Source: Candidatus Aenigmatarchaeota archaeon (GTDB lineage: Archaea > Aenigmatarchaeota > Aenigmatarchaeia > GW2011-AR5). From it: a stretch of 64,000 nt of DNA. The DNA is taken from the NCBI GenBank assembly GCA_016187335.1, contig JACPJW010000001.1, forward strand, positions 448,001 through 512,000, written 5' to 3'. How positions within the stretch are numbered: position 1 is the stretch's first letter; every line of letters begins with the position of its first letter. Below the pieces are notes generated by a model. It saw only the letters and a list, made by a program, of their open reading frames with translations, was not told where the DNA came from and did not search any database. This document shows, one piece after another, positions 7,398-16,732 of the stretch. The position numbers were made by a program, and so were the translations under genes.

Positions 7398-7661
7398 GCG
7401 CCCGTAGCTCAGCTTGGCAAACTTTGCTACTCCAAAGTTTGATCAAAAGAGGTCTGTGACGAAGTTTGAGCAAATAGAGCACTTCTCTCCTAGAGGTGAA
7501 TTGAGCGCAACGGAAGACTGAAGTTTCTGAAGAAACTTCAGCCGGTTTTGTGCGATGATAATTTCCTGAAGTGAGGAAGGGGCCGCGCGTTCGAATGCAC
7601 CCTTTCTTGGAAAGAAAGCGTGCACGGAAAGAAAAGGGTGCCGAATATCGCGCCGGGCGCG
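7398..7661 (+). tRNA. tRNA-Arg(CCT) with three introns (7418-7473 D-loop, 7493-7573 at 37/38, 7596-7647 at 59/60)
   Basis: Exons join to a full cloverleaf: GCGCCCG/CGGGCGC acceptor stem, GCTC/GAGC D stem, CTTCT-CTCCTAA-GGAAG anticodon arm, GCGCG-TTCGAAT-CGCGC T arm. Each junction forms a BHB or relaxed BHB. Confidence 0.9.
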
Positions 7662-7664
7662 CTT

Positions 7665-7967
7665 ATGTTCCATTACAGAGATCCGATAAGGGAAATAGCG
7701 GAAGAAGACGGATATTTCCTCACCGAGACAGCCGAAGGTATGAATCTTGCCTTGAAGACAATCTTAGGCTTTGCAAGCATAATACTCAGGGAACTGGAAG
7801 GGGGGAAATGTTATGTAAAAATAGTACTTGAGCCTCCTAGAGGTTTATCAAGGACAGCCGAAGAAATTTTTGAAAGTCCTTATTCCGCGGCCGGATATGT
7901 TGCAAAATGGATGTGCGGACCTATCTATACGGATCTGGTTCAAGAAGTTGAGGCGTTAATTCTCTAA
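7665..7967 (+). CDS. Hypothetical protein
   Basis: 100-aa ORF starting 3 nt after the tRNA. The track's 7620 start lies inside the tRNA intron. Confidence 0.55.
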   Translation: MFHYRDPIREIAEEDGYFLTETAEGMNLALKTILGFASIILRELEGGKCYVKIVLEPPRGLSRTAEEIFESPYSAAGYVAKWMCGPIYTDLVQEVEALIL

Positions 7968-8001
7968 TCTTTATATTCCGCCTTCGCACAAAAGATTCAT
8001 T

Positions 8002-9339
8002 ATGAGGAAATATCTGTTATCAATAGTCCTGCTGCTGCTTTCGTCTGTACCTGTTTTTGCAGTGGGCAACCTCACGGTTTTCAGCGTTCCTTTATCACAG
8101 CCGGCTGTCTACGCAAACACCAACCAGTCCGTTAACGTCCTTAACCTGACCCTGAACGTGACGGCGGGCAGCGGCGCGGACGGCGTCATCAACATAACTG
8201 TCATCAATATTACGGTGACCAACAGCAGCGAAGGCAACCTGTCAGCGGGCAATATATCAGCGGTTGAGGTCAGGAACAGCACGGGGTTCCCGATAGCAAG
8301 GAACACAACAGTCAATCCTGCAAACAACATGACGTTCACGATTTCAATCCCGGGAGGGCTGACCATAAACACATCTAATGCGACCATATGGATTGCCATC
8401 AACATATCAAGGTCGGCGGCGCGCTTCCTGAACATATCAGTGAACATAACGGGTCCCGGGGAAATAGGCACGAACAGCTCTGTGAACAATATCACGATAT
8501 CAGGCGTTTCAATAAAGTCAAACGGCGTGCAGATACAGAATTTACATTCAAACTCAACAATATCGCCGCGCTTTGTGGACACGGGCGTTGAGAACCAGTC
8601 GTTCACTTACACCTTGGTTCCGCCGACTGGAACGGATGCAATAAAGAACGTCAGTATTTCGTTCCCGGCCAATTACACCTTGTCCAAGCTCATTTCAATA
8701 ATGGTTGGCGGCGGCGTCCCGGACGGCGCGACAAACAATACAGCCGTCAACGGCATAAACATTTCCCTGAGCACGGCCACGACCCAGACAATACAGGTAA
8801 ACTTCACCGCCAACACTTCCGTCAATCCTATCCAGAACAGGGCGTTCTCATCAACCCTGGACGGAGGAAACCTCTCTGCCGTGTCAACTGATCCCACGCT
8901 GGAAGGGGTGAATGTAAGCACACAGCCCATACTGAACCTTACGAACGTCACCCTGGTAAAAAGCACTGCAATAATCAACGGCACCGATTACTGGGAATTC
9001 AATTTCACTTTGAATTACACTGCCAACATATCAACAGGAGGCCTGATTCAGTTCAGGCTCACGGACTGGAACACTTCTTCCGGCAGCACGCTTGCATTGA
9101 ACAATTCATTGTGCGATGGCAGCAGGTGCGCGTCCCTGAGGAACGAGACAACCATGAACACCACAGGGAAATTCAACATAACGAATGATTACGAATCTTT
9201 CACAAAGGGAATCACCATATCGTCCATAACACAGGGCACCCTGACAATACTGGTCTTGAGAATGGTAATACCTTCAAATGCCCCGACATCATCCAACTGG
9301 CAGGCTGCTTACGGATTTTTGTTCAGGTCAAGCCCTTGA
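8002..9339 (+). CDS. Secreted Asn/Thr-rich surface glycoprotein
   Basis: Signal peptide, very dense N-x-S/T sequons, beta-rich, no C-terminal TM. The N-terminal module resembles the repeats of 55804-62394. Confidence 0.75.
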   Translation: MRKYLLSIVLLLLSSVPVFAVGNLTVFSVPLSQPAVYANTNQSVNVLNLTLNVTAGSGADGVINITVINITVTNSSEGNLSAGNISAVEVRNSTGFPIARNTTVNPANNMTFTISIPGGLTINTSNATIWIAINISRSAARFLNISVNITGPGEIGTNSSVNNITISGVSIKSNGVQIQNLHSNSTISPRFVDTGVENQSFTYTLVPPTGTDAIKNVSISFPANYTLSKLISIMVGGGVPDGATNNTAVNGINISLSTATTQTIQVNFTANTSVNPIQNRAFSSTLDGGNLSAVSTDPTLEGVNVSTQPILNLTNVTLVKSTAIINGTDYWEFNFTLNYTANISTGGLIQFRLTDWNTSSGSTLALNNSLCDGSRCASLRNETTMNTTGKFNITNDYESFTKGITISSITQGTLTILVLRMVIPSNAPTSSNWQAAYGFLFRSSP

Positions 9340-9360
9340 CGTTTTTAATAGTGATGCTGA

Positions 9361-10572
9361 ATGGATTATCGCCTTTCAATACTTTTAGCTGCGGCATGCC
9401 TGCTTCTGCTGTCCTTCGTTTCCAGAGGAGAAACAACCGGCAATGTAAGCATCTCAACGCAGGGAAATATTTCCCCGTCAACAGGGGTTTACGGATATGT
9501 AGCTCCCGGCGGATGCAACAGCAACGCGGAGTGCTACGACTATAAATGCTTCCAGGATTTTTTGGTGCCATCCGGAAACAAGACCGGCAGGTGCGACGTC
9601 CCGGCAACCACAAAATGCTTTCACAGCGGGACAGGCTATTCAACCGGCACTTATTATTGCTCGGCTAACACATCGTATTACCGGTGCGATACAGGCGGCA
9701 ACGGAAGCTGGACAGGCGCGTTTTCGTGCTCGTCAGGCCAGACGTGTTCTGTTGATAGTACGTCGTCTTCAGCCCCTTGCTCAACATCGTCGCCTTCAAG
9801 CAGCTCAAGCAGCAGCGGAGGCGGAGGCACAGCAATAAAGAAAGCCTCTGTCCAGCTTGTCTCGGGCATAGCCGGCTTTGAAATTTATCAGGAGGAAGAT
9901 GTCAACAAAACGGTTATCGTGAAAAACAACGGCGATTATGTCCTTGGCAATGTCTACCTTGACATACAGGGAATTCCTTTTGCTTCCGTCCTTACGGGCA
10001 GCAGCGAGATCAATTTGTCAAAAAATTACAACTTCACCGTGTCTTTCATGCCCAAAAACTCTACTGAAATCAGGACGTACCCCGCCAATGCAACGGTTTA
10101 TACCAACTTCACCAATACGACGGCAAACTTTTCCTTCACAGTCAAAGTACTCCCAAGCAACAGGACCGTTTCAGAGTCAATCATTCCCGCGTACGCAGAA
10201 TATATCAACCTTTCTCTGGAATACGAAAAGAACGTAACGGCCCTGGAAAAGGAAGGGCATAACCTCACGGATGCGAGGGCGATTCTTACGACAATAAAGG
10301 CAAAGATGCAGGACATCAACCAGTCGATATCCAAGAAGGACTACTTTTCTGCTGCATCCCAGATCAGCGAGGTGAAGGTTCTTTTTGATGAGCTCCAGAA
10401 AACCATTTCAAAATCCGAAAAGCCGAAAGGAACGGATATAATAATTTATCTGGCCGTCGCCGCTGCCATTCTGGTGGCAGTTATTCTGGCCTACCTTCTG
10501 TGGCCGTCAAAGCAGCAAAGAAGAGTTTTTCAGGGCCAGCAGTATTCGCAAGCAGCAGTAATTAAGCAATAG
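9361..10572 (+). CDS. Membrane-anchored surface protein (Cys-rich module, Ser/Gly linker, Ig/CARDB-like domain, coiled coil, C-terminal TM)
   Basis: Signal peptide, Cys cluster, SSSSSSGGGG linker, and the hydrophobic IIIYLAVAAAILVAVILAYLLWP segment. Confidence 0.75.
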   Translation: MDYRLSILLAAACLLLLSFVSRGETTGNVSISTQGNISPSTGVYGYVAPGGCNSNAECYDYKCFQDFLVPSGNKTGRCDVPATTKCFHSGTGYSTGTYYCSANTSYYRCDTGGNGSWTGAFSCSSGQTCSVDSTSSSAPCSTSSPSSSSSSSGGGGTAIKKASVQLVSGIAGFEIYQEEDVNKTVIVKNNGDYVLGNVYLDIQGIPFASVLTGSSEINLSKNYNFTVSFMPKNSTEIRTYPANATVYTNFTNTTANFSFTVKVLPSNRTVSESIIPAYAEYINLSLEYEKNVTALEKEGHNLTDARAILTTIKAKMQDINQSISKKDYFSAASQISEVKVLFDELQKTISKSEKPKGTDIIIYLAVAAAILVAVILAYLLWPSKQQRRVFQGQQYSQAAVIKQ

Positions 10573-10927
10573 AGATCCGGCCGGCGTCAGCGGCTGGTGG
10601 TTTCTTTCCCTGAACCGACCTTTCTGCGGCAAACTTGCAGAGGATGACAAATCTGCTGTTCAGTTCGCCGCGGTCAAGCTTGTTTTCAAAAATCACGGAA
10701 GCCAGTTTTCTCGCCTCTGAAATTATTTCGTCGTTGGAAAAAACCCTGTCGTTTTTCCCCCTTATCCTGCGCAGGTATTGCGATATTGCCGGCTGCGATA
10801 TTCCCATCAGCCTTGCGGCCTCGCTCTGGTTAAGATTGTAGCCCTCAATAAGCTCTCTGGCTATCAATGATCTCAGAGACGGAACTATTTCGCTGGCAAT
10901 CAGTTCCCATTCAATTTTCATTTTCAA
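10562..10927 (-). CDS. HTH transcriptional regulator (archaeal COG2522-like)
   Basis: IVPSLRSLIARELI...NQSEAARLMGISQPAISQY HTH motif. Confidence 0.8.
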   Translation of the reverse strand: MKMKIEWELIASEIVPSLRSLIARELIEGYNLNQSEAARLMGISQPAISQYLRRIRGKNDRVFSNDEIISEARKLASVIFENKLDRGELNSRFVILCKFAAERSVQGKKPPAADAGRISIA

Positions 10928-10999
10928 TCACCGATGCAAGGAGAAGCAAAGCTTCTATGATAAGAGATTGAAACAAACGTTTTTAAGCCTGATAAGTTT

Positions 11000-11107
11000 C
11001 TAGAATTTTATTATACCGAGGGCTATGAGGCCTGTCACCAGAACGATGGCCGTTATGAGTATCCAGAAATAAGTGTAAACGTAATCATGCGTCGACTTTT
11101 CTTTCAT
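11000..11107 (-). CDS. 35-aa single-TM peptide resembling a pilin-type N-terminus
   Basis: Translates MKEKSTHDYVYTYFWILITAIVLVTGLIALGIIKF. It fills the intergenic gap co-directionally with its neighbours. Confidence 0.5.
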   Translation of the reverse strand: MKEKSTHDYVYTYFWILITAIVLVTGLIALGIIKF

Positions 11108-11162
11108 AATCAGAACCCATCATGTTAATTAATTTTATTTAGTCGGTTCCGGTACCTCCGAC

Positions 11163-11687
11163 TTATTTCTTCATCATCAGGGGCTCCCCTTTTTCAGGGT
11201 AATGCACGTCAATCAGCTCGTAATCCTGCAGTACGCGGGCCCACTGCTCTACAAGGCCTTCATGGACGCCGAATTTCTTCGCGGCGTCTTTCAGTTTCAC
11301 CTTTTTGTTTTTCATCACCAGGTCAAACAGCTCGTCCAGAGGCGCCTTGTAATCCTTCTTCAAATCAGCAATAACCTTTTCATTGCTCACGATGCCTTCC
11401 TTGGCGACTCTTTCAAAGAACTTTGCATTATCAATGATTATCTGCTTTGCAGGCTTGACAATGCTTTCTTTTACCGGCTCTGAAATGCTTGGCAGCTTTC
11501 TCAGAATATCCTTGTATCTTTCAAGAAGAAAATCCCTGTCGCTTTTCAGCTCGATGTTTTCTTTTTTCAGCTTGATTATAGTATCCTTCATGATGGAGAA
11601 GGATTCCTCCATGCGCTGCATCCTCCTGTTCATTTCCCTTTCAAGTCTGGCAATTTTTTTTTCGGCGTCGTCAGCGAATAGAGGCAT
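11163..11687 (-). CDS. Coiled-coil protein with a C-terminal winged-HTH-like domain
   Basis: N-terminal heptad repeats. C-terminal LDELFDLV...DAAKKFGV...VEQWARVL. Confidence 0.65.
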   Translation of the reverse strand: MPLFADDAEKKIARLEREMNRRMQRMEESFSIMKDTIIKLKKENIELKSDRDFLLERYKDILRKLPSISEPVKESIVKPAKQIIIDNAKFFERVAKEGIVSNEKVIADLKKDYKAPLDELFDLVMKNKKVKLKDAAKKFGVHEGLVEQWARVLQDYELIDVHYPEKGEPLMMKK

Positions 11688-11747
11688 AAGAAAAAATTCT
11701 TTTGATATTTTTTAAAGCTTATAACGAACGGGAGCGAACACATATGC

Positions 11748-12548
11748 ATGTACGTTGTCAAGGCCGACGGCCGGCGCGAGACTTTCAGCAAAGAGAAAAT
11801 AATAAATACATGCCTCAAGGCCGGAACCGACAGGAAGAAGGCTGAGGAAATATCAGGAAAAGTTTTTTCGTCCGTCAAAGACGGGATTGCCACGAAGGAA
11901 ATATACAGAATGATTCTGAATCTTCTTGAAAAAGCGAGCCATAGGTCATCTTTCTTTTTCCGCCTCAGGGACGCAATAGCAAAGCTCGATTCTGAAAGCT
12001 ATGAACTCTATGTAAAAGAGCTTTTGGAATCCATGGGCTACAAATGCTCGTGGAATAAAATCATTGCCGGAAAATCCGTGGAGCATCAGGTTGATATTGT
12101 TGCAAAAAACGCGAAAGGCAGAATGTTTCTTGTTGAATGCAAAAGGCACGTGAACCCCCACAGGTTCTGCGGCCTGGGCGTCATTTTGCAGGTCCAGGCG
12201 CGCCTTGAGGACATAGATGACGGCTTCGAATCAGGGAAAAATAATTGCAGGTTTGACCAGGCGTGGATATTCAACAACACGAAATTCTCGGAGCACGCAA
12301 AGCAGTACGCTGCGGCAAAAAATATCCTCCTGAGCGGATGGGGGTACAAAGGAAGCATTTCTATAGAAAAGCTTGCTGGCAGGAACAGGATATATCCCGT
12401 GACGCTGCTGAAAGCAGACAATTCAACAATACAGCAGCTGCTCCGTCAGAAAATAATCACGGTGGAGGATGTCCTGAAAGAAAAGATAAGCATGCCGAAG
12501 AGCGTTGCCGATGAGCTCAGGAAGCAGGCACGTATCATTCTTTCTTAA
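11748..12548 (+). CDS. ATP-cone + Mrr-like PD-(D/E)xK endonuclease
   Basis: MYVVKADGRRETFSKEKI ATP cone, and QVDIVA...LVECKRH nuclease motif. Confidence 0.8.
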   Translation: MYVVKADGRRETFSKEKIINTCLKAGTDRKKAEEISGKVFSSVKDGIATKEIYRMILNLLEKASHRSSFFFRLRDAIAKLDSESYELYVKELLESMGYKCSWNKIIAGKSVEHQVDIVAKNAKGRMFLVECKRHVNPHRFCGLGVILQVQARLEDIDDGFESGKNNCRFDQAWIFNNTKFSEHAKQYAAAKNILLSGWGYKGSISIEKLAGRNRIYPVTLLKADNSTIQQLLRQKIITVEDVLKEKISMPKSVADELRKQARIILS

Positions 12549-12573
12549 AAATTATCTGTGCAGTTATTAGCAG

Positions 12574-12678
12574 GCCGGCGTCGCATAATCTGGTGGTGCA
12601 CTGATTGCATGCGAAGCAAGTGTATGTCTCGAAAACCAGCGGGCTCTGCCCATGCAGGTTCAAATCCTGCCGCCGGCG
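12574..12678 (+). tRNA. tRNA-Ser(CGA) with a 22-nt intron at 29/30 (12604-12625)
   Basis: GCCGGCG/CGCCGGC acceptor stem, CTG|GT-CTCGAAA-ACCAG anticodon arm, long variable arm, GCAGG-TTCAAAT-CCTGC T arm. BHB central helix GCAC/GTGT. Confidence 0.9.
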
Positions 12679-12682
12679 CTTT

Positions 12683-13150
12683 ATGATAGAAATAAAACTA
12701 GCTGCTGAAAAGGATAGGCAAGGCTTTGAAAATCTGGCTGCAGAAAGAGACAAAGAAATAAGGCAGCGCAGGGCAAAAAATTACTGGGGCAAAAAATTCA
12801 CGAAGCTTGTCATGGAAAAGAGGCTGGTAATTAGCCTTGACAAAGGCAAGCCATCAGGATTTCTTTATTTTACATTCGAATTTATCGACTATCCTGCGGC
12901 GTACGTTGAGCTTATTTTTGTTTCAAAGAAGAGCCGGAGAAAGGGTTCAGCCTTGTATTTGTTGAATAGATTCGAGCGGCTCGCGTCAGAAAACGGTTTT
13001 GTCAATGTATTTTCCAGCACAAATCCAAGCAACAGGATCTCGCTGAAATTGCACAAGAAGCTCGGCTACAAAGAATGCGGCTTTATCTACGGCATAGAAA
13101 ACAGGCGCAGCAAGGAGATTTTTCTCTCAAAAGAACTGAAAAAAACCTAA
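12683..13150 (+). CDS. GNAT family N-acetyltransferase
   Basis: VELIFVSKKSRRKGSA acetyl-CoA-binding motif and NRISLKLHKKLGY. Confidence 0.85.
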   Translation: MIEIKLAAEKDRQGFENLAAERDKEIRQRRAKNYWGKKFTKLVMEKRLVISLDKGKPSGFLYFTFEFIDYPAAYVELIFVSKKSRRKGSALYLLNRFERLASENGFVNVFSSTNPSNRISLKLHKKLGYKECGFIYGIENRRSKEIFLSKELKKT

Positions 13151-13191
13151 ACTTCCTTTTTAAGTTTTGAAACAAGTTCTTAGTATTTCAT

Positions 13192-13451
13192 GCCGGGATA
13201 CCGAAATCAGGTCTCTCAAGATAAGAGTGAAGAAATTCACGATGATTGCCTTTCATTGGTAAACGGGCCAGTGCAGTTCCGCTTCAAAGAAGCGGTGCGG
13301 CCAACCTTGAGAGCTGGTGCGCCTTCGGCGCGTGGGGGTTCAAAGCACCCTTTCTTTTTGCAAAAGAAAGCGTGCGCGGAAAGAAAAGCAACTTTTCAGA
13401 AAAGTTGCATCAAAAATAAAGGAAAGGGCTGTGAAATTCCCTCTCCCGGCG
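13192..13451 (+). tRNA. tRNA-Ser(TGA) with three introns (13209-13256 D-loop, 13272-13304 at 30/31, 13345-13437 at 59/60)
   Basis: Spliced product has GCCGGGA/TCCCGGC acceptor, CCAG|C-CTTGAGA-GCTGG anticodon arm, GCGCC/GGCGC variable arm and GGGGG-TTCAAA|T-CCCTC T arm. BHB central helices GAAA/TTTC, GGCC/GGCC and TTCA/TGAA. Confidence 0.9.
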
Positions 13452-13505
13452 CTTTTTTCTTGAAGATGCAAGAAGCTTTTAAAATAACCATTTCTAATTA
13501 TAAAC

Positions 13506-14030
13506 ATGGCAAGCGATTTTTACCGCCAGCTGGGGTCAGGCGTTGCCAGCCTGACGTTCGGCGTTGCGCTTTCCGTATTCATTTACGCTGCCGCTTCTGG
13601 TGCGGCAAGCAGCCTGCAGTCATGGCTGCTCTTTGCGGCATCGTTCCTGCTGATGCTCAGGTTCTGGTGGCGGTACAGCGAACTTTTCGTGCAGTTCCTG
13701 CCGTCCCGCACGTTTTCGCATTTCCTGTTTGACTTTGCGATTTCATTCTTCGGCATTCTGGCAGTGCTTTTTGTAAGCGCTATGCAGACATGGGCAGCCT
13801 TGGGGGCACTGGCTATGCTTTCAAGCGCGATACGATGCAGGCTTTCGTGGAACGAAGCATCCAAGGATGTAAAGGCAAAGCTGAAAAGAACTTTTGCAGG
13901 AGCATTGGCGATGCTTTTTGTCTTCGCTGCGATATACGCCCTTGCACCGGTCTTTGATCAGATTTTGCTTGCTGCATTAGTATTTCTCATAGTTCTGCTG
14001 TTCGTTGTTTACGCCTCAAGAAAGCCGTGA
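13506..14030 (+). CDS. Multi-pass membrane protein of unknown function
   Basis: Five to six hydrophobic segments, clean ORF. Confidence 0.75.
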   Translation: MASDFYRQLGSGVASLTFGVALSVFIYAAASGAASSLQSWLLFAASFLLMLRFWWRYSELFVQFLPSRTFSHFLFDFAISFFGILAVLFVSAMQTWAALGALAMLSSAIRCRLSWNEASKDVKAKLKRTFAGALAMLFVFAAIYALAPVFDQILLAALVFLIVLLFVVYASRKP

Positions 14031-14038
14031 TTTTGAAA

Positions 14039-14054
14039 TCTCCCGGCGCTTTTT
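14039..14054 (+). repeat. 16-bp direct repeat of the tRNA-Ser(TGA) 3' end
   Basis: TCTCCCGGCGCTTTTT occurs at 13442-13457 and 14039-14054. Confidence 0.75.
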
Positions 14055-14141
14055 ATATTCTGAAGAATATATGTCAGCCAAGACAAAAGTATTTAAATCT
14101 TTAATCACTAATAAGTAGTATCAAAATTATGAGGTGTGGAT

Positions 14142-14399
14142 ATGGTAGAACATTTCATTGGAAAGATATCAACTCAAGTTCTTACGGATTTAAATAGAGG
14201 CAGGGATACGTGGGAAGTTCCATATGAAGCCGTGATTTATGTAAAGGAAGGTCCAGAAGCATGTGGACAGGTTCTTGGAATAGTTCCGGGACTTAGCCCT
14301 GATATGAGAATGCGTACAATGAGCGTTTATGCAGGCAGAAAATTCGTGTCAAAGCCTTCAGAACACGGCTACAAAGATATTTTCGAAATCGTGGAATAG
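14142..14399 (+). CDS. Hypothetical protein
   Basis: GAGGTG SD at 14131-14136 ahead of the ATG. Confidence 0.6.
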   Translation: MVEHFIGKISTQVLTDLNRGRDTWEVPYEAVIYVKEGPEACGQVLGIVPGLSPDMRMRTMSVYAGRKFVSKPSEHGYKDIFEIVE

Positions 14400-14600
14400 A
14401 AATTTTCTAACGTAAAACAAAAACGTTGATTATTTTACAATTCTCTTTTTTATTTCACTATTTATCTTTCTTTTATTTCAAATTATAAAATTCTTTGATT
14501 AATTCTTCAAAATCCCGTGCTTCTCTCGTGCTTTCTGCGTAATTTGCGCCTTGGAAAATCTTTATTAATGGGTTTTTACAAGAACTATAAAGGTGAAGAA

Positions 14601-15236
14601 ATGGTATCCCAGATAGTAGATGTATTATCTCAGTTTACCGTTGGTACAGTGTCTTTCCTGCCAAGCCTGGTTGCTGCCGTCATTCTTCTGGTCATCGGCT
14701 TGGTTGTTGGAAAAATAGTGGGAAGGGTAGTCAAGGAAGCCTTGGAAAAGCTGAAGGTTGACTACTACGTTTCGGAAACCAAGAAGCCCGTTGTGATGCT
14801 GAGCGATTTGTTCGCCCTCATAGCAAGATGGTGGATATACCTTGCGTTCGTAACGGCGGCTTTGTCCACGAACGTTCTTGGCATACCGTCATTGGCGTTG
14901 TGGGTTTCTGAAATCAATGCATTCATCCCGCGAATCATCGGCGCAGCCGTGATTCTGATTTCGGGCTACATCCTGGCTGAGTACATCAGGGGTCACTTGG
15001 TGTCATTGAAGAAACTCTATGCAGAGGTTGTCGGCAAGATGCTATTCTTCTTCGTCATGTACGTGGCGCTTGCGCTTGCCCTGCCTATTCTAGGGGTTTC
15101 AGCAATCCTGGTGAACAACATCCTGATAGTAATCATAGCCTCGATAGGGCTTGCAATGGCAATAGCCCTGGGCCTGGGATTGAAGGACGCTGTTTCTGAC
15201 GTTTCCAAGAGATATGTCAAAAAGCTGAAAGTTTGA
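14601..15236 (+). CDS. CmpX-like / MscS TM-helix-repeat membrane protein
   Basis: FLPSLVAAVILLVIG and FIPRIIGAAVIL repeats, and AIALGLGLKD. Confidence 0.8.
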   Translation: MVSQIVDVLSQFTVGTVSFLPSLVAAVILLVIGLVVGKIVGRVVKEALEKLKVDYYVSETKKPVVMLSDLFALIARWWIYLAFVTAALSTNVLGIPSLALWVSEINAFIPRIIGAAVILISGYILAEYIRGHLVSLKKLYAEVVGKMLFFFVMYVALALALPILGVSAILVNNILIVIIASIGLAMAIALGLGLKDAVSDVSKRYVKKLKV

Positions 15237-15266
15237 TTTTTTTGCTTTCATTTCAATTTTTCATTT

Positions 15267-15611
15267 CTAATGACTAGGCCGCCAAGCAATGGGATTGAGG
15301 CCTGATATTTCCCACCATGAAAAATCCTTGCCGGTTAAAATTTCCCTCGGGTCGTGTATTCCCGCTTTTCCGGAATGAACCGGCAGTTCTACCCCTTCCA
15401 GTTCCTGCTCACTTACAACACAGTAGTGTTCGTCGGATCTGGCGTGGCTGAATACAAGCCTGATTGAAGCAATCCCCGGAGCGATATACCCTTTATCCCA
15501 TAATTGCTGGTACGGCTCAAGCCCTCTGAAAGCAAAGGGAAGGTTCGTCTCCCTGCGGTTTTTCAGATAATTTTCAATAGTTCCGTCCCTTTCAGGTTTA
15601 TAAAATGGCAT
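15267..15611 (-). CDS. Hypothetical protein
   Basis: 114-aa ORF that fills the gap with no competing feature. Confidence 0.5.
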   Translation of the reverse strand: MPFYKPERDGTIENYLKNRRETNLPFAFRGLEPYQQLWDKGYIAPGIASIRLVFSHARSDEHYCVVSEQELEGVELPVHSGKAGIHDPREILTGKDFSWWEISGLNPIAWRPSH

Positions 15612-15653
15612 ACCCTTAGTTCTTAAGAATTAAGCATAAATAGAAATCTTGAC

Positions 15654-15834
15654 GCGATGGTAGTCTAGGAACCCTTTTTCTCGTTGCGCTCGAAAAAGCG
15701 TTCACGGAAAATGGGTTGGAAGATGGTAGGATACAACCTTGCCAACGGCCCTTTTCAAAAAGCGCCGGCGGAAAATGCAAACAGGTTGAGAGGCGAAAGC
15801 CCGACAAACCCGGGTTCAAATCCCGGCCGTCGCA
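15654..15834 (+). tRNA. tRNA-Gly(GCC) with three introns (15670-15722 D-loop, 15745-15782 at 37/38, 15791-15807 variable loop)
   Basis: GCGATGG/CCGTCGC acceptor, CAACC-TTGCCA|A-GGTTG anticodon arm, AG|AC variable loop, CCGGG-TTCAAAT-CCCGG T arm. BHB central helices TCTA/TGGA, TTGC/GCAA and GTTG/CGAC. Confidence 0.9.
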
Positions 15835-15928
15835 TAAACAAGAAAAAAATAGCCGGAAACAAGGGTCCCAGTCAGGCAACGCATCTCAATTATTTATATA
15901 GCCCCCTGACAAATATTGTATTGATATC

Positions 15929-16411
15929 ATGTTCTTCAAAAAGAAAGACAATTACGAGGAAATAAAGCGCGCCGTTGAAGAGCCTGTTTCTTCCGAGCCG
16001 ACATTGCAGGACCTGGAAATAGAGGACCTGCCGCCGGAAATGCGCTACGACAAGAATTATGCGGAGCCCCGGGACAGCGCGCCTCTTTTCGTCAAGGTGG
16101 AGAAGTACAAGGAACTGATAGGCCTCATACAGGAAATGCGGGCATTTACAAACGGATTGAAGCAGACGTTTTCTGTGATACACGAGTCTGATGCGCTGCG
16201 CAACGATGCCGTTAAAATCATGCGCACGACGGTCCAGCGGCTGGACAAGACCTTGGCAGAAATTGACAGCGAGCTGGTAAGGCCGCGCGGCATTGACATG
16301 GAAAAGCCGCCTTACGCCGGCAGCGAAATGAAATACATTGAAGGATCGCTGTCAGAATTGCAGCGCCATTTGGCTGTTTTGCGCAAGGATCTGCAGGAAA
16401 TGAAGGAATGA
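15929..16411 (+). CDS. Coiled-coil hypothetical protein
   Basis: PLFVKVEKYKEL followed by long heptad repeats. Confidence 0.65.
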   Translation: MFFKKKDNYEEIKRAVEEPVSSEPTLQDLEIEDLPPEMRYDKNYAEPRDSAPLFVKVEKYKELIGLIQEMRAFTNGLKQTFSVIHESDALRNDAVKIMRTTVQRLDKTLAEIDSELVRPRGIDMEKPPYAGSEMKYIEGSLSELQRHLAVLRKDLQEMKE

Positions 16412-16460
16412 TCAGGTTATCTGGTTCTTAAATATTTCATCAAAAATTACTACATTCAGT

Positions 16461-16732
16461 GCGGCCGTCGCCAAGAGGCCCTTTTTAGAAAAAAGCGTCT
16501 ACGGAAAAACTAAAAAGCGTCTGGAAATCTGGTCAAAGGCGCGGGTTTCACTTGAGTGTTGATGCGCAAGCAGGTGAAAGCGTAACTCAAGGCAGCTGAC
16601 GAGGCTGACGCACTTCGTGCGTCATGCTGTTTGATATCCCGTCGGTTAGTCCGTTCGGCGGTTCGAATGCACCCTTTCTTAGAAAGAAAGCGTGCACGGA
16701 AAGAAATGGTGCCGAAAATCCGCCCGGCCGCA
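16461..16732 (+). tRNA. tRNA-Leu(CAA) with four introns (16476-16527 at 15/16, 16546-16584 at 30/31, 16592-16635 at about 37/38, 16668-16718 at 59/60)
   Basis: Spliced sequence GCGGCCG TC GCCAAG|TCTGGTCAAAGGC G CGGG|A CTCAAG|A TCCCG TCGGTTAGTCCGTTC GGCGG TTCGAA|T CCGCC CGGCCGC A is a standard archaeal Leu cloverleaf. The 59/60 BHB is perfect and the others are relaxed. Confidence 0.88.

Follow-up and report, generated by a model that had tools for sequence, protein, structure and literature searches.

Near-identical introns at T-loop position 59/60 of unrelated tRNA genes in an aenigmatarchaeote: probable copies of one bulge-helix-bulge intron

Transposition of introns between archaeal tRNA genes has been described so far for the Thermoproteales only, via an unknown mechanism that is thought to act at the DNA level; this statement, and the others on Thermoproteales below, follow the account of transposed bulge-helix-bulge (BHB) tRNA introns in that group by Fujishima, Sugahara, Tomita and Kanai (2010, Mol Biol Evol 27:2233), as reviewed in PMC4090602. 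In those clusters very similar introns share one position, canonical or non-canonical, in tRNA genes with unrelated bodies; they retain the BHB motif, and orthologs in related species are found without them (PMC4090602). We describe here a similar arrangement in a 64,000-nucleotide stretch of DNA from a groundwater archaeon of the phylum Aenigmatarchaeota (DPANN), in which a tRNA-Arg(CCU) gene and a tRNA-Leu(CAA) gene carry near-identical introns between positions 59 and 60 of the T-loop. An initial annotation of this DNA had set the two introns in the context of the Thermoproteales; the same phenomenon is indeed described there, but the organism itself does not belong to that group. The present case also differs from the Thermoproteales in that it concerns a DPANN phylum with genomes of about 1 Mb and an intron family centred on T-loop position 59/60, in that the introns contain a defined hairpin and mirror-repeat module which is also found outside tRNA genes, and in that several introns turn over at one site.

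Closer in lineage are ARMAN-2/Micrarchaeota and other DPANN (PMC3239211, PMC5829648), which likewise combine a small genome with heavily disrupted tRNA genes, use position 59/60, and have tRNA genes that standard finders miss. Those papers cover intron positions and the endonuclease, but not families of near-identical introns common to several tRNA species, and PMC3239211 gives a maximum of three introns per archaeal tRNA gene, whereas four have to be removed from the tRNA-Leu(CAA) gene described here. In its architecture, and in that alone, the module resembles the bacterial intrastrand triplex-type repeats (Holder et al. 2015, PMC4666352), which are short and abundant, have a mirror arrangement with one pyrimidine arm and two purine arms, and have been linked to local genome rearrangement; unlike the 59/60 introns, both these and REP-like hairpin repeats are bacterial, intergenic and unspliced. 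In the literature library that was searched, no paper was found that reports such intron copying for Aenigmatarchaeota.

The window, by which we mean the whole 64,000-nucleotide stretch that was analysed, corresponds to C2:448001-512000 of a genome of 1.01 Mb and 47% GC in two contigs; in our locus names the genome is G000 and its contigs are C1 and C2. Window positions 7398-16732 form a cluster of heavily interrupted tRNA genes. Neither tRNA-Arg(CCU) nor tRNA-Leu(CAA) was detected by default ARAGORN or by Rfam at the gathering threshold in the unspliced window, over which ARAGORN made a single doubtful tRNA call; both genes were recovered with a custom BHB finder, followed by ARAGORN on candidates with the introns removed. 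Such heavy interruption accounts for the many tRNA genes that escape standard finders in genomes of this kind. The two genes and their 59/60 introns are as follows, hBHBh' denoting two 3 nt bulges that flank a 4 bp helix at the exon-intron junctions, together with outer and inner helices.

7398..7661, forward strand: tRNA-Arg(CCU) with three introns; a 76 nt tRNA-Arg(cct) in ARAGORN once 7418-7473, 7493-7573 and 7596-7647 are removed
7596..7647, forward strand: Arg 59/60 intron, 52 nt, subtype A1 of the CCCTTT-hairpin-AAAGCG-NNNN-CGGAAAG module; strict hBHBh'
16461..16732, forward strand: tRNA-Leu(CAA) with four introns; tRNA-Leu(caa) in ARAGORN only with all four removed
16668..16718, forward strand: Leu 59/60 intron, 51 nt, subtype A1; strict hBHBh'; identical to the Arg intron at 48 of 51 aligned positions

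The sequences and coordinates that had been reported for these two introns proved to be exact, and both a MAFFT alignment and a pairwise count reproduced the reported difference of three substitutions and one indel, the latter of a single base. The match has an E value of 3.6e-14 (blastn-short, 1.01 Mb genome) and is therefore not due to chance. Outside the window, a third copy of subtype A1 was found at C2:161608-161659, at the 59/60 site of a second tRNA-Leu gene (C2:161412-161680), and this copy shares 49 of 52 positions with the Arg intron. Pairwise identities within the trio are 48/51, 49/52 and 48/51 (92-94% for Arg against the two Leu genes), with E values of 1e-14 to 1e-18 in blastn-short searches of the genome, and in all three copies the insertion site lies between tRNA positions 59 and 60, that is, between TTCGAA and the following T of the loop. 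The host tRNAs are, as the initial annotation had claimed, unrelated outside the TTCGAA loop: they differ in class, anticodon and T-stem (GCGCG in tRNA-Arg and GGCGG in tRNA-Leu, matching at just two or three of five positions per strand), and the variable arm is short in tRNA-Arg and long in tRNA-Leu. The identity between the Arg and Leu genes stops at the splice sites and the universal T-loop GTTCGAAT, which is the sole sequence that they share outside the introns, and no exon sequence has been co-converted. Among 67 copies, from this genome and its relatives, of the module that they contain (module A), the Arg and the two Leu introns came out as mutual nearest neighbours, followed by same-genus copies in other contexts and then by copies from other genera. 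These data suggest that the three introns are probably copies of one BHB intron that has been copied between non-homologous tRNA genes at 59/60 within this Aenigmatarchaeota lineage. The reading draws directly on how the sequences are related and how they fold, on the cloverleaf that removal of the introns restores, on the presence of the enzyme genes, and on orthologous sites that are empty or hold something else.

The Arg 59/60 intron adopts a strict hBHBh' fold with a 5 bp outer helix (the T-stem), a 4 bp central helix, 3 nt bulges and an inner helix of at least 8 bp, and this is also its minimum free energy (MFE) fold, at -25.3 kcal/mol. The strict hBHBh' of the Leu(CAA) intron is likewise the MFE fold (-22.3 kcal/mol); the second Leu copy has a BHB fold that is 1.7 kcal/mol less stable than its MFE structure. 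In the Arg and Leu(CAA) introns the central helix consists of TTCG paired to CGAA, and across the 12 tRNA genes of the genome listed with 59/60 introns the intron bases -6 to -3 are matched to the loop of the host in 11 (TTCG/CGAA or TTCA/TGAA); since these bases pair with T-loop positions 54-57, their agreement with the host gives covariation support for the BHB. Removal of the introns restores a canonical cloverleaf for both Arg(cct) and Leu(caa), as judged by ARAGORN. Genes for the splicing endonuclease EndA (C2:410532-410810; PF01974 match, 97 bits) and the ligase RtcB (PF01139 match, 528 bits) are present in the genome, so that the 59/60 introns would most naturally be removed from the transcripts by this standard pathway. 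In the long hairpin form of the module copies (for example, window 7600-7625), CCC faces GCG, with a central C-C mismatch in nearly all copies.

Relatives of the host were gathered through exact matches to tRNA exons and are metagenome-assembled genomes labelled Candidatus Aenigmatarchaeota or unclassified archaeon, many of them from groundwater. Their comparison involves the remaining introns of the two genes and a third gene of the window, which are listed here.

7418..7473, forward strand: Arg D-loop intron, 56 nt, a member of module B, the repeat family with a hairpin plus ATCAAAAG; 4 bp central and 8 bp inner helix
7493..7573, forward strand: canonical Arg 37/38 intron, 81 nt; homologs in the orthologs of five other genera and in the relative R1
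16476..16527, forward strand: Leu D-loop intron of module A type, about 52 nt with ends placed to within a few bases; its BHB is relaxed, the central helix having one mismatch
16546..16584, forward strand: Leu 30/31 intron, 39 nt; conserved in other genera, with orthologs in G008, G014 and GCA_053529875
16585..16592, forward strand: 8 nt micro-exon made up of A31 and the anticodon loop CTCAAGG; required for a complete anticodon arm
16593..16636, forward strand: Leu 38/39 intron, 44 nt; relaxed BHB with a perfect 4 bp TCAA/TTGA central helix and weak flanking helices
13192..13451, forward strand: third tRNA of the window with a T-loop intron, from the 59/60 scan; Ser-UGA-like, the anticodon being assigned by eye

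At the 59/60 site, three of six Arg(CCU) orthologs are empty and the other three hold different variants. The genes of G004, G008 and G009 have the homologous 37/38 intron and neither a D-loop nor a 59/60 intron, and those of G011 and G015 carry 59/60 introns of the same general architecture with a very different sequence. The D-loop intron of the Arg gene, many copies of which (89-97% identical) occur elsewhere in the genome, was not found in the Arg(CCU) orthologs of G004, G008, G009 and G011. The neighbouring VIT1 gene led to a close relative, R1 (L158, a contig of Logan SRR22388212), in which it is 82% identical and stands in the same gene order. Although the Arg(CCU) exons of R1, as read by eye, differ from those of G000 at a single base, its 59/60 intron is a different 67 nt variant with seven mismatches and six gaps against that of G000, its D-loop intron also differs, at about the same place, and there is an extra 28 nt intron at 29/30; in this comparison of sequences three of the four Arg introns of R1 depart from those of G000 despite near-identical exons, which speaks for very fast intron turnover. 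The R1 gene itself lies at approximately 2150-2436 of L158 on the minus strand, with its four introns at the D-loop, 29/30, 37/38 and 59/60. The 37/38 intron of G000, on the other hand, matches that of R1 at 52 of 56 positions, plus one 25 nt insertion, and is vertically inherited. This intron (window 7493-7573; L003, L006, L007, L028 and L158) is conserved in at least six genera, and the GGTGA..CTGA and GATGA..CTGA boxes that it retains resemble a kink-turn or a box C/D-like motif.

For tRNA-Leu we compared 20 genes from 15 related assemblies that agree in variable arm and T-stem; of these genes, 17 are empty at 59/60 and the other three contain three different introns; a syntenic Leu(CAA) ortholog, in GCA_053529875, holds a module-B composite at this site. 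The 30/31 intron is identical at 35 of 39 positions in the ortholog comparison, and the arrangement of an anticodon micro-exon between introns recurs in the Leu(CAA) orthologs of G014 and GCA_053529875. These patterns indicate that the canonical and 30/31 introns are vertically inherited while the 59/60 site turns over. An intron homologous to the D-loop intron of Leu(CAA) is also found in the second Leu gene. The 59/60 intron of the Ser-UGA-like gene (13345-13437) is a longer composite with the CCCTTT-hairpin-AAAGCG module, and the ortholog in the same-genus genome G001 has it as well. A Gly(GCC)-like tRNA at window 15655-15838 has two module-A introns, in the D-loop and just 3' of the anticodon, and a T-loop without an intron. 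A scan of metagenomes with the Arg exon pattern gave no matches, and the 38 matches to a pattern of T-loop plus intron start were all discarded as chance occurrences in unrelated DNA.

At least 12 tRNA genes of the genome carry 59/60 introns. This list comes from a tightened T-loop scan, two looser scans having given mostly noise, and an automatic assignment of all 12 host tRNAs was abandoned because of its many alternative pseudo-solutions. Module A (CCCTTT, a short hairpin, AAAGCG, four bases and CGGAAAG) is present in six of the 12 and module B (a hairpin followed by ATCAAAAG) in five, with an intron of another kind in the last. Three of the module-B 59/60 introns are identical to one another at 41-44 of 46 positions, in hosts with different acceptor stems. 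Module copies also occur in intergenic DNA adjoining stop codons and gene starts. Across the phylum, a search for the T-loop followed by 3-7 bases, CCCTTT, a hairpin and AAAGCG found the T-loop intron pattern in 45 of 301 sampled Aenigmatarchaeota genomes, representing 32 of 151 genera, as against one hit for the reversed control. Up to 15 copies were present per genome, often 10-15 of a genome-specific variant; in G150 and G109, the introns of the copies listed begin in the same or nearly the same way, and the T-stems in front of them are of many kinds. Homogeneity within genomes together with difference between them would be expected from bursts of copying or from concerted evolution.

Copying would take place by insertion into an empty 59/60 site, or an intron already there would be replaced. 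Each copy consists of a 5' T, then the conserved module, in which a pyrimidine arm is followed by a short hairpin, by the CGTGCACG centre and by a purine arm, and finally a 3' adaptor, CGAA plus two bases, able to pair with T-loop bases 54-57 (TTCG). In the transcript the pyrimidine arm would pair with the 3' purine arm and the adaptor with TTCG, giving a perfect hBHBh', which EndA would cut and RtcB would reseal so that the TTCGAAT loop is restored. The initial annotation had claimed copying at the same site, and this part of it has been strengthened by the third copy, by the empty or otherwise filled orthologous sites and by the genome-specific families. Neither of the routes that it offered has fared as well: reverse splicing would have to operate without a reverse transcriptase, and gene conversion without a co-converted exon. 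In an ectopic conversion, exon sequence beyond the intron block would be expected to have been carried along, and none was; the shared flanks, moreover, amount to just 7 nt and 2 nt, not enough for an empty site to be filled by ordinary homologous conversion. Introns that already occupy their sites may convert one another. We favour insertion or replacement at the DNA level and give low weight to RNA-mediated transfer.

Several points weigh against the reading of the trio as copies exchanged between genes. Splicing of the introns is predicted. No match to the reverse transcriptase domain PF00078 (RVT_1) was found in the 91%-complete genome, and a search of the genome for Y1 (TnpA/RAYT) transposase returned only a 16.7-bit sub-threshold fragment with a stop codon, so that no copying enzyme has been found. 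Even genera that diverged deeply retain 75-86% identity in the module core, and the high identity of the trio must therefore reflect constraint in part and not youth alone. The differences within the trio fall in the hairpin loop, the linker and the 3' bulge and at one arm position that still pairs as G-U, which look like the least constrained positions. In addition, the sole same-genus genome, G001, is 56% complete and is without both genes, so that the time of copying is only loosely bounded. It could be argued from the conservation of the core and from where the trio differs that no recent exchange took place, and that old, independently acquired members of the module were kept alike by purifying selection on RNA or DNA structure and on the BHB. 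That the 5' arm and the palindromic centre stay complementary through 11 different arm sequences, with 25 fully paired copies where 4.5 would be expected and 1000 shuffles gave at most 11, does indicate structural selection, and a module-B 59/60 intron of L038 is identical, by eye, at about 41 of 44 positions to a G000 intron in a different tRNA. We nevertheless regard this explanation as improbable, given that the members of the trio are closest to each other over their full length, arms and adaptor included, that positional orthologs in the closest relatives hold other variants or nothing, and that selection alone does not predict for each genome a homogeneous variant of its own in many tRNA genes.

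Somewhat less probable again is a transfer at the RNA level, in which an excised intron would be reverse-spliced, or mis-ligated by RtcB, into another cleaved pre-tRNA at the same BHB, and the product then reverse-transcribed and recombined into the gene. Such a route fits well with an identity that ends exactly at the splice sites and the universal T-loop, at the same position in all copies, and with an endonuclease and a ligase that act on exactly the BHB motif, but the lack of an RVT_1 match in the 91%-complete genome counts against it, as do the intergenic copies of the module by stop codons and gene starts, for which a route through RNA splice sites does not account; the review literature (PMC4090602) also favours a process at the DNA level. 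As to an artefact of assembly or binning, by which a repeat was collapsed or mis-joined into two tRNA genes, we give it almost no weight. The contigs of the Arg locus in independent assemblies do end within the intron core, as repeats often cause, but identical loci are present in independent Logan assemblies from three sequencing runs, which excludes an assembly artefact: the Leu locus is contiguous and identical there, the Arg exon-to-intron junction is the same in two more runs, and the spliced Arg and Leu products are both canonical tRNAs.

Returning to copying between genes at 59/60, its timing can be judged only roughly. A tree of RpoB from 18 genera, with tips of 0.2-0.5 substitutions per site, is an unresolved star on which gains and losses cannot be mapped. 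The divergence within the trio, about 6%, is similar to the figure of about 7% for the vertically inherited 37/38 intron between G000 and R1, which would date the copying approximately to the split from this closest sampled relative or to a later time, and hence not very recently. The copying had initially been called recent; this word holds in a relative sense, identity alone being a poor clock.

The comparison with the Thermoproteales suggests that the 59/60 trio is a well-supported new example, from another phylum, of the copying of tRNA introns from gene to gene. As to how archaeal tRNA genes gain introns at odd positions, this locus and the pattern across the phylum show the process in DPANN, in a form that makes the question more tractable: the element is clearly delimited, it has a single preferred target (T-loop 59/60), and close relatives have different occupants. 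A bolder and rather doubtful extension is that the 59/60 intron with its module represents a mobile DNA element, small and non-autonomous, which specifically targets the T-loop-coding GTTCRAAT of tRNA genes, brings along or soon acquires an adaptor that turns it into a spliceable BHB intron, and multiplies in bursts. If this were true, the tRNA gene sets of many Aenigmatarchaeota would have been reshaped time and again by such enzyme-driven bursts, and the module would be the first defined element, with a defined target, for intron gain in archaeal tRNA genes.

Some intergenic copies of module A (C1:15489-15513, C2:256523-256543, C2:78234-78248 and C2:520232-520254) have a TATA-like AAATATTA box 3 nt downstream, with the start codon of an open reading frame 10-40 nt further on, and the module often starts right behind the stop codon of the upstream gene or the 3' end of a tRNA. 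The box is also found inside some 59/60 introns (C2:717639 and C2:259484). The idea that the introns might contain working promoters for separately transcribed exons was not adopted, the Arg and Leu introns being without the AAATATTA box and the distance to the 3' exon being too short in the copies that have it. In one D-loop intron of the genome, at C1:26064-26161, the module is followed by four tandem 19 nt repeats of its GAATGCACGGAAAGAAAAA tail.

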